Positions 2,390-6,465 of a stretch of DNA of 64,000 nt are shown piece by piece (the stretch's first letter is position 1; every line of letters begins with the position of its first letter). Both the position numbers and the translations under genes were made by a program. The DNA lies in the NCBI RefSeq assembly GCF_024700885.2, contig NZ_CP117016.1; one strand, written 5' to 3'. This DNA comes from Escherichia coli (GTDB taxonomy: Bacteria; Pseudomonadota; Gammaproteobacteria; Enterobacterales; Enterobacteriaceae). Below the pieces are notes generated by a model. It was given only the letters and a program-made list of their open reading frames with translations. It was not told where the DNA came from and made no database searches.

Positions 2390-2478
2390 ATGCGTGCCCA
2401 TTCCTGACGGAATGGGCATTTCTGCGCAACTTGTTGTCTTCTCAACAAATTACTGCTTGCTCTGGCCGCCATAATATT

Positions 2479-2497
2479 GATAATAAGAATCATTGTT
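2479..2497 (+). promoter_or_regulatory. Candidate Fur box upstream of ydiE
   Basis: GATAATAAGAATCATTGTT matches 15 of 19 positions of the Fur consensus GATAATGATAATCATTATC; 23 bp upstream of the ydiE ATG. Confidence 0.35.
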
Positions 2498-2519
2498 ATA
2501 TCAATTATTATTAATTTTT

Positions 2520-2711
2520 ATGCGTTATACGGATAGCAGAAAACTCACGCCTGAAACGGATGCCAATCACAAGACCGCTTCCCCGCAGCCCATCCGGCGA
2601 ATTACCAGCCAGACACTGTTAGGTCCGGATGGCAAACTGATTATCGATCATGACGGGCAAGAATATCTGCTCCGTAAAACTCAGGCTGGCAAGCTGCTGT
2701 TGACCAAGTAG
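2520..2711 (+). CDS. ydiE: HemP-like small protein
   Basis: 63-aa ORF starting MRYTDSRK; the track ORF starts 9 codons upstream at a less likely start. Confidence 0.8.
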
Positions 2712-2714
2712 CCT

Positions 2715-4190
<1,476 letters not shown>

Positions 4191-4213
4191 TTAAACACCA
4201 GCAAACAGGAGGG

Positions 4214-4927
4214 TTATCGCTGAACCAACGTCGTTATCTGATTTACAGGAACGGCAGGCCACAGACATCCCTGGAGAGCATGGAAATCAAAGGGGGTAAT
4301 CTGTGCCATTATTTCTGGCGTATCAATGCCCCCCGCGATGATGCAATTGCAACATGGGGAAATTTGCGCCTGGATCGCACGAATAAACGGTTCGAAGGAG
4401 CGATGCGTAATTTGTTGCTGAATAAAACTTTTATCCAGCATGACGCGGGTGAAAAGACCATCAAAAACCGCTTTCATTGTGCTATTGCCTGCGCCCAAAT
4501 TACCTAACACAAGGGGATACATTTGCGATAAGGACAAAAGATCGCGATTATCTTTTCCTTCATCGAGATGCGGGTAATTCTCATTAATCAACAGTTCAAT
4601 AAACGGATATTTTAATAGTTCGCCTGCGTAATTATCCCTGTCTAATAATAATGTAGCCACTTGTGGGGTTAAATTAAGCCAGGCAAAGAGTTTATGTTGA
4701 ATAAAAAAGTGTTGGCATGATTTTAGTAATTCCAACTGCTCTGAAAATAATTGCCAATGTTGCTCCTCGGTAAGTTGCGCTATAACCCGACTCGTCGGGA
4801 TACGAACCGTACCATCTTCACTGGAGAAATGGGTAATTAACTCAACGCCGACAAGGTCTTGCTGGTTATCTCTTATCGGCAGGAAATAGCAATCAGAATG
4901 ATAAAGATTCTCCAAAAAAATCTTCAT
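4214..4927 (-). CDS. ydiV: Anti-FlhDC factor, degenerate EAL-domain protein
   Basis: 237-aa ORF recognised as YdiV; K-12 synteny. Confidence 0.85.
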   Translation of the reverse strand: MKIFLENLYHSDCYFLPIRDNQQDLVGVELITHFSSEDGTVRIPTSRVIAQLTEEQHWQLFSEQLELLKSCQHFFIQHKLFAWLNLTPQVATLLLDRDNYAGELLKYPFIELLINENYPHLDEGKDNRDLLSLSQMYPLVLGNLGAGNSTMKAVFDGLFTRVMLDKSFIQQQITHRSFEPFIRAIQAQISPCCNCIIAGGIDTPEIMAQITPFDFHALQGCLWPAVPVNQITTLVQR

Positions 4928-5715: not shown

Positions 5716-6465
5716 TCAGATGGTCGAAATCAGCATTCTGTGACCTTCGATATCCAGACGGCGAAAATTCATCCCATAGGCCTGCGCCAGATTTGGCGGC
5801 GTGAGCACCTCTTCCCTGCGTCCACTGGCCAGCATTTTTCCACCTTTTAGCAACCACGCCCGATGCGCATGACGCAATGTATGGTTGAGATCGTGACTGC
5901 TCATCACAATCGCCAGTCCTTGCTGACACAGCGCGCTCAGAATTTTGTCTAATGCACTTTGTTGCGCAACATCAAGACTGTTCATCGGCTCATCAAGAAG
6001 CAGCAATTGGCCTGCGGGATTGGCTTGTGGTGTGATTTGCAGCACCACCGCAGCAAGACGTACGCGTTGCCATTCGCCGCCGGAAAGTTGATTGGTGCTA
6101 CGTCCGAGTTTGTCATCAAGAGCCAGCGCCCCTGCGACATCATTCAGTAGTTCGGTACGCGTTTTATCGTGCTGATGCAGTGTCAGGTAGTGCCAGACCA
6201 GCATTGCAAACGGCGGCGTCTGCTGTTGTGAAAGATAGGCGCGATGCAGCGCGAGTTTTGTTGCGGACCATGCTTCCAGTGGTTGCCCCGCGAACTGAAT
6301 GCTTCCCTTACCGCTGGTCATTCCGGCCATTCGCGCCAGTAAGGTACTCTTACCCGCGCCATTCGGCCCCACCAGATGCAGGATCTCCCCAGCCCGAACC
6401 TCGCCAGAAAGCGGCCCAAGGCGGGTAGATTCCGCAACATCCTGTAACTGCATCACAATAGACAT
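5716..6465 (-). CDS. btuD: Vitamin B12 ABC transporter ATPase
   Basis: 249-aa ORF with Walker [10 protein letters not shown] and ABC signature LSGGE. Confidence 0.9.

Follow-up and report, generated by a model that had tools for sequence, protein, structure and literature searches.

An ordinary Fur operator at the ydiE (hemP) promoter of Escherichia coli: anatomy, conservation and published occupancy

Introduction

Operators of the iron-sensing repressor Fur in the core regulon of Escherichia coli, such as those of entC, fepB, sodA, sufA, yncE and fiu, are 19-bp arrays of GATAATGATAATCATTATC-type hexamers that lie in promoter regions and are occupied only under iron-replete conditions, and the genes behind them are derepressed when fur is deleted. 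The Fur regulons of nine E. coli strains were determined by ChIP-exo and by RNA-seq of Δfur mutants (NAR 2023; PMC10164565), and ydiE was assigned to the core regulon as well as to the two Fur iModulons (PMC10164565). The S. Typhimurium gene ydiE (STM1346) was 7.4-fold up in a Δfur mutant in a study whose table lists the published evidence of Fur binding for this gene as 'No' (PMC3212961). Salmonella ydiE is also induced in iron-restricted egg white, and ydiE is among the published copper/iron-stress-induced genes. Older reports (Panina 2001, Tsolis 1995 and Bjarnason 2003) are cited here through PMC3212961 and PMC5428311. A further Fur-controlled promoter before a HemP-family gene is that of hemP in Yersinia enterocolitica which, as described in the summary given in PMC3212961, heads a hemin-uptake operon.

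The site considered here lies at positions 2479-2497 of a 64-kb stretch of DNA, referred to below as the window, and it resembles the core-regulon operators in hexamer array, promoter location, iron-replete occupancy and derepression of its gene in Δfur. With 20.1 bits it falls in the upper range of their scores (leave-one-out 4.8-23.0). Unlike those operators it controls a 63-amino-acid protein of unknown function, not a transporter or a siderophore enzyme, and its regulation has an anomalous sign in strain BL21; nothing essential differs. The window and Salmonella enterica share the aroH-ydiE-selO gene order, and the Fur site predicted for STM1346, ATAATAATAATCATTGTG, is the ortholog of window positions 2480-2497 (ATAATAAGAATCATTGTT). 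The Salmonella box has T rather than G at position 9 and G rather than T as its last base, and its likely start codon is found further downstream. In contrast to hemP of Yersinia, as summarized in PMC3212961, ydiE is monocistronic between aroH and the convergent selO.

The Fur operator at ydiE is already known and is an ordinary site, and ydiE was a textbook-level member of the Fur regulon before this work, as a core gene in nine E. coli strains and a known one in Salmonella. The result has little significance beyond showing that a reading of raw sequence, made without tools, recovered a real operator. Some value may lie in the base-level anatomy, in which the box falls on a conserved -10-like GATAAT whose spacing to the -35 element is also conserved.

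Materials and methods

A scoring matrix of 19 columns was built from 20 W3110 Fur ChIP-exo peaks at classical iron/manganese promoters (PMC10164565 Dataset 2): fepA-fes, fepD-entS, fepB, entC, fiu, efeU, fhuE, tonB, yncD-yncE, yddA, sufA, mntP, ftnA, cirA, yojI, mntH, nrdH, exbB, yqjH and sodA. About 60 nt were fetched on either side of each peak and the central ±30 nt were used. The ydiE peak was excluded from training, so that the scan of the window is free of circularity.

Orthologous upstream regions were collected in a scan of one genome per species, which gave 13 loci with YdiE relatives in Escherichia, Citrobacter and Salmonella, 12 of them with usable upstream sequence. These 12, the window and K-12 make up the alignment of 14 sequences used below.

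The ydiE locus and its Fur box

The window is part of an E. coli chromosome, with ppsR, aroH and hemP (ydiE) in that order, followed on the opposite strand by selO, ydiV, nlpC and btuD. A 501-bp query around the site found a match in 5422 of 5426 complete E. coli genomes, with 95-100% identity. The features discussed below, with their window coordinates, are as follows.

2396..2423, plus strand: aroH terminator hairpin, GCCCATTCC-TGAC-GGAATGGGC, then ATTTCT
2457..2462, plus strand: putative -35 element TTGCTC of a sigma-70 promoter for ydiE; CTTG invariant in 14 sequences from three genera
2473..2498, no strand: extended Fur array, with an extra 5' hexamer AATATT (register -6) and the flanking bases T2478 and A2498
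2479..2497, plus strand: core 19-bp Fur box, GATAATAAGAATCATTGTT, recognized by 15/19 consensus positions, by the matrix and by its orthologs
2479..2484, plus strand: putative -10 element GATAAT (5/6 to TATAAT), identical with the first hexamer of the Fur box; invariant in 14/14 sequences
2488..2500, no strand: published iron-replete Fur ChIP-exo peak (W3110 P67, sequence AATCATTGTTATA, 13 bp), transferred to the window
2520..2711, plus strand: ydiE, the regulated gene, encoding a HemP-family protein of 63 amino acids (ORF, PF10636, RefSeq annotation hemP/ydiE)

The gene behind the box had been described as a hemP-like ydiE in the original prediction, and its product does match the Pfam family PF10636 ('hemP') with 55.9 bits (gathering cutoff 25; E = 3.7e-15; residues 27-63), in agreement with the RefSeq annotation. 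The same family includes the crystal structure 4YNX, deposited as 'Uncharacterized protein YdiE'. No hemin-transport genes are found beside ydiE, whose neighbours are aroH, selO and ydiV, so membership of a family named 'hemin uptake protein' should not be read as evidence of what YdiE does.

Direct comparison of 2479-2497 on the plus strand with the Fur consensus GATAATGATAATCATTATC confirmed the predicted agreement at 15 of the 19 positions. Read as hexamers, the core box is GATAAT, AAGAAT, the spacer C and ATTGTT, which agree with GATAAT-GATAAT-C-ATTATC at 6/6, 4/6 and 4/6 positions around the spacer. Direct reading extends the array to AATATT, GATAAT, AAGAAT, C and ATTGTT, which gives at least three GATAAT-like hexamers in the F-F-x-R order of E. 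coli Fur sites, an arrangement equivalent to overlapping 7-1-7 inverted repeats. By inspection the array also holds two overlapping 7-1-7 units, TGATAAT-A-AGAATCA (12/14) and TAAGAAT-C-ATTGTTA (10/14), and in register -6 it matches 14 of 19 consensus positions and scores 12.4 bits in the window. The surroundings are AT-rich, as had been stated, with 23% G+C in the 60 bp from 2460 to 2519. The predicted location of the box stands, and the distance of 23 bp to the gene needs a small correction: 22 nt separate the end of the box at 2497 from the ydiE ATG at 2520, and 23 is the difference between these two coordinates.

The leader between box and start codon (2498-2519, ATATCAATTATTATTAATTTTT) is pure A/T, and no Shine-Dalgarno-like sequence precedes the ydiE ATG. 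This absence raised the idea of a leaderless ydiE mRNA, which was rejected because no plausible -35/-10 pair would serve a start at the ATG and because the ATG lies at different distances from the conserved block in different genera. An ATTnTTnnTAA block at about 2504-2514 keeps a fixed distance from the Fur box in 14/14 sequences while the position of the start codon varies; it is not a conserved Fur match.

Strength of the match

Apart from the ydiE site, no match of at least 15/19 to the consensus occurs on the two strands of the 64-kb window. With dinucleotide shuffling, the full window contained a mean of 0.12 such matches, and 11% of the shuffles contained one or more, so the consensus count by itself is no more than suggestive, or modestly significant, at the scale of the window. 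When the 130-bp aroH-ydiE spacer alone was shuffled, a match of at least 15/19 appeared in 0.18% of trials, and when the AT-rich 60 bp alone were shuffled, in 0.7%. The 20 training sites themselves agree with the textbook consensus at 11-16 of 19 positions, which makes 15/19 typical of known Fur sites, not weak.

The matrix scan, proposed along with the original prediction as a check, put the ydiE site at the top of the window. It scored 20.07 bits, first among about 128,000 positions and strands, with the runner-up at 15.2 bits, and it outscored 16 of the 20 leave-one-out training sites (median 17.9, range 4.8 to 23.0 bits). The matrix gives a P of about 2e-6 per position for this site, even with an AT-rich background. 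A Gibbs search run without a seed on these 20 regions recovered the Fur motif AATGAAAATGATTATCAAT, whose best match in the window is again at the ydiE locus (2476-2494, 22.4 bits).

These figures bear on the possibility that the 19-mer is a chance by-product of an AT-rich promoter, in which GATAAT would be the -10 element, the remainder spacer and untranslated leader, specific binding of Fur absent and any iron regulation indirect. The Fur consensus is itself AT-rich and includes -10-like hexamers, the whole-window shuffles yield matches of this quality at the rate given above, and a literature search found no in vitro footprint or EMSA of the ydiE site. We nevertheless hold this reading to be extremely improbable, given the matrix P-value and three further facts: conservation continues through AATCATTGT, well past any -10 hexamer; a ChIP-exo peak that disappears under iron starvation lies on the site; and Salmonella has a predicted orthologous site, with loss of fur derepressing its ydiE.

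Conservation of the site

In the alignment of 14 sequences, 19 of the 20 columns of the block TTGATAATAAnAATCATTGT (2477-2496) are invariant. The flanks have diverged strongly, both farther upstream and in the first part of the coding region. Matrix scores of the orthologous sites lie between 17.0 and 21.9 bits in all 14 sequences. Register -6 reaches 16.9-18.7 bits in 8 of the 9 Citrobacter and Salmonella sequences and 10.6 in the ninth, as would be expected of an extended hexamer array with room for more than one Fur dimer. Among E. coli genomes, 4125 carry the 36-mer 2470-2505 exactly, and 5341 of 5426 have a match. The present analysis established both how strong the match is statistically and how well the site is conserved, and the matrix scan and the phylogenetic footprint agree independently with its reading as a Fur box.

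Another reading of the AT-rich block would make it mainly a site for H-NS, or for Zur or some other member of the Fur family, acting in place of Fur as the main regulator of ydiE. H-NS was flagged in the aroH-ydiE spacer by Shimada et al. (PMC3946193), and to the eye ATTGTTATA (2492-2500) looks like one half of a Zur box. The Zur-like half has no matching second half, its 3' portion TTATAT is unconserved in Citrobacter and Salmonella, and the Zur-box reading was ruled out on these grounds of inspection and conservation; H-NS would explain neither the base-level invariance nor the derepression in Δfur. We judge it very improbable that either protein takes the place of Fur. H-NS may co-occupy the spacer with Fur, but offers no alternative identity for the 19-mer.

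A candidate second Fur box at 2500-2518 (minus strand, 12.6 bits, 21 bp from the first) was rejected as a conserved site, since scores at the orthologous position range from -10.6 to +16.1 bits, with most of those in Citrobacter and Salmonella below zero.

Fur occupancy and Fur-dependent expression

The published data, mapped here onto the window, show iron-dependent Fur occupancy at ydiE and derepression of the gene in Δfur. Dataset 2 of PMC10164565 assigns Fur peaks to ydiE at 1787605-1787617 in MG1655 and at 1791295-1791307 in W3110 (P67), and both are flagged 'R', meaning that they were seen in iron-replete medium only and were absent after dipyridyl (PMC10164565). The mapped W3110 peak overlaps the 3' half of the 19-mer; with the W3110 hemP ATG at 1791327, it spans -32 to -20. 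Since all peaks in the W3110 table are 13 bp long, we treat it as a peak-centre call and not as a footprint.

Across the nine strains, the log2 change of ydiE in Δfur was +2.87, +8.14, +5.24, +2.91, +7.08, -1.10 (BL21), +3.20, +2.23 and +5.16 (PMC10164565), which is to say that ydiE was derepressed in 8 of 9, by +2.2 to +8.1. The 5' neighbour aroH barely changed and was not derepressed (PMC10164565). A lack of Fur-dependent regulation of ydiE, which would have spoken against the original prediction, is contradicted by the Δfur and ChIP-exo data, and the increase in Salmonella points the same way as that in the eight E. coli strains. The proposed iron regulation of ydiE through the Fur box is supported by published ChIP-exo, by the Δfur data, by the matrix scan and by the phylogenetic footprint. 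The ydiE site has all the sequence-level and published in vivo attributes of an E. coli Fur operator.

The exception is BL21, in which ydiE went down in Δfur with the 19-mer intact. This implies something beyond simple repression, at least in that strain. A mutation of the operator was considered as the cause and rejected: in BL21(DE3) (NC_012971.2; locus 3899-4029) the only difference is a T-to-A change 4 nt 5' of the intact 19-mer, equivalent to window position 2475, which does not account for the anomaly. The ydiV gene of BL21(DE3) is annotated as frameshifted (NC_012971.2; locus 5724-6436), and this does not account for the behaviour of ydiE either.

Promoter geometry and mode of repression

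The Fur box sits between the terminator hairpin of aroH and the ydiE ATG. The hairpin (2396-2417) has a 9-bp G+C-rich stem and an RNA folding energy of -21.4 kcal/mol (z = -4.7 against shuffles), and it is kept across three genera with paired changes (ATTCC/GGAAT against ATCC/GGGAT); a simple terminator scan missed it on account of the short T-run. It is evidently the aroH terminator and would insulate ydiE from aroH transcription, from which it follows that ydiE has a promoter of its own. Binding of the RpoD holoenzyme in the aroH-ydiE spacer was reported from Genomic SELEX (Shimada et al., PMC3946193).

The distance from TTGC to GATAAT is 17 nt across the alignment and 16 nt in the window, where one spacer base present in K-12 is missing. 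The spacer sequence itself is variable, and fixed spacing around a variable sequence is the signature of a -35/-10 pair. Transcription of ydiE is predicted from this arrangement to start near 2491. A generic promoter scan did not call the putative promoter, as its -35 element matches at only 3/6 positions; the sole output of that scan was the minus-strand candidate ATAACA-17-TATTAT (2499-2471), which we dismissed as a by-product of the palindromic AT-rich box, with 0.7 such hits expected by chance. Searches by gene name and coordinate prefix in the supplements of an in vitro run-off start-site study and of a Cappable-seq study gave no mapped start for ydiE, and we therefore infer from the geometry of the site that the Fur box overlaps the -10 element and the start. 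The exact promoter elements, the position of the start, how many dimers bind and repression by occlusion are likewise inferred.

Shimada et al. (PMC3946193) proposed a different promoter for the same spacer, TTGATA (2477-2482) and TATCAA (2499-2504) separated by 16 nt, which would leave the Fur operator as it is and place Fur over the -35 element and the spacer, again excluding RNA polymerase. TTGATA matches TTGACA at 5/6 positions and is invariant, as follows from its location within the conserved block. Their assignment is a sequence prediction under a SELEX peak rather than a mapped start. Its -10 element, TATCAA, ends without the conserved T and lacks conservation beyond Escherichia (the other sequences have AACTGA, GTTTGA, CATTAA or AATTGA in its place), and both points make this promoter less likely; the competing TTGC-N17-GATAAT is kept in 14/14 sequences. 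We regard the published arrangement as conceivable but unlikely. Under either geometry Fur would overlap core promoter elements.

We therefore return to the pair TTGCTC and GATAAT. A box that lies over the conserved GATAAT, 16-17 nt from the TTGC of the -35 element, makes promoter occlusion by Fe2+-Fur likely, and 2479-2497, extending to about 2473-2498, is very probably the Fur operator of the ydiE promoter, repressing by keeping RNA polymerase out. With sufficient iron, Fe2+-Fur would occupy the GATAAT-like hexamers, and two dimers would probably sit on the overlapping 7-1-7 units. The array coincides with the putative -10 element (2479-2484) and the predicted start (about 2491), with TTGCTC 16-17 nt 5' of it, and bound Fur would thus lie across the -10 element, the start and the first bases of the transcript, as in the classical geometry of occlusion. 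RNA polymerase would be excluded and ydiE would stay silent; when iron is scarce, Fur would depart and ydiE would be transcribed.

Neighbouring genes and other Fur-like sequences

The Fur-repressed ydiE directly adjoins the genes of two published post-translational Fur antagonists, SelO/YdiU and YdiV (2520-4927). In Salmonella, SelO/YdiU inactivates Fur through UMPylation, and dipyridyl induces SelO/YdiU 16- to 55-fold (PMC9239237), and YdiV together with SlyD inactivates Fur in E. coli, with a 3- to 23-fold dipyridyl induction of ydiV 'by unknown mechanisms' (PMC7515728). Neither PMC9239237 nor PMC7515728 mentions ydiE. The 5' end of ydiV carries another Fur ChIP-exo peak of the iron-replete condition (W3110 P68), at 4889-4901 of the window. 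This peak overlaps CAGAATGATAAAGATTCTC (4894-4912), a Fur-like 19-mer with 14/19 consensus positions and 14.6 bits, the third-best matrix match in the window, which lies inside codons 6-11 of ydiV (minus-strand ATG at 4927). Expression of ydiV changed little in Δfur RNA-seq (-0.36 and -0.61 log2).

The genes ydiE and selO are convergent, with 3 nt between their stop codons (2709-2717); among 13 Escherichia, Citrobacter and Salmonella relatives, 12 have a gap of 2-44 nt. No intrinsic terminator was found on the plus strand after ydiE in a scan downstream to about 4150, so derepressed ydiE transcription may run antisense into selO. One could imagine the ydiE operator as the node of a local Fur feedback module, in which Fur-gated ydiE transcription antisense to selO, or the YdiE protein, would tune the expression or action of SelO and YdiV; we consider this improbable. 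The position of ydiE beside two Fur antagonists, together with the Fur peak near the beginning of ydiV, could guide work on the role of YdiE.

Elsewhere in the window, an islet of 35-40% G+C carries an ORF of 386 amino acids (40262-41422, minus strand) that is present in 19 of 5426 complete E. coli genomes and has no match in Pfam and PADLOC searches. In a matching genome the ORF has a gpD-like (VgrG/Pvc8) gene on one side and ogr of a P2-like prophage on the other, a location that we take to be a hotspot for anti-phage cargo. Inside it, at 40651-40669, is a perfect 19-bp palindrome, GGTAATAATCATTATTACC, which scores 15.2 bits as a Fur site. It was rejected as a further Fur site: it has no ChIP evidence, and it lies in a prophage cargo ORF that is absent from K-12. 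It is probably a chance occurrence in DNA of 35% G+C.
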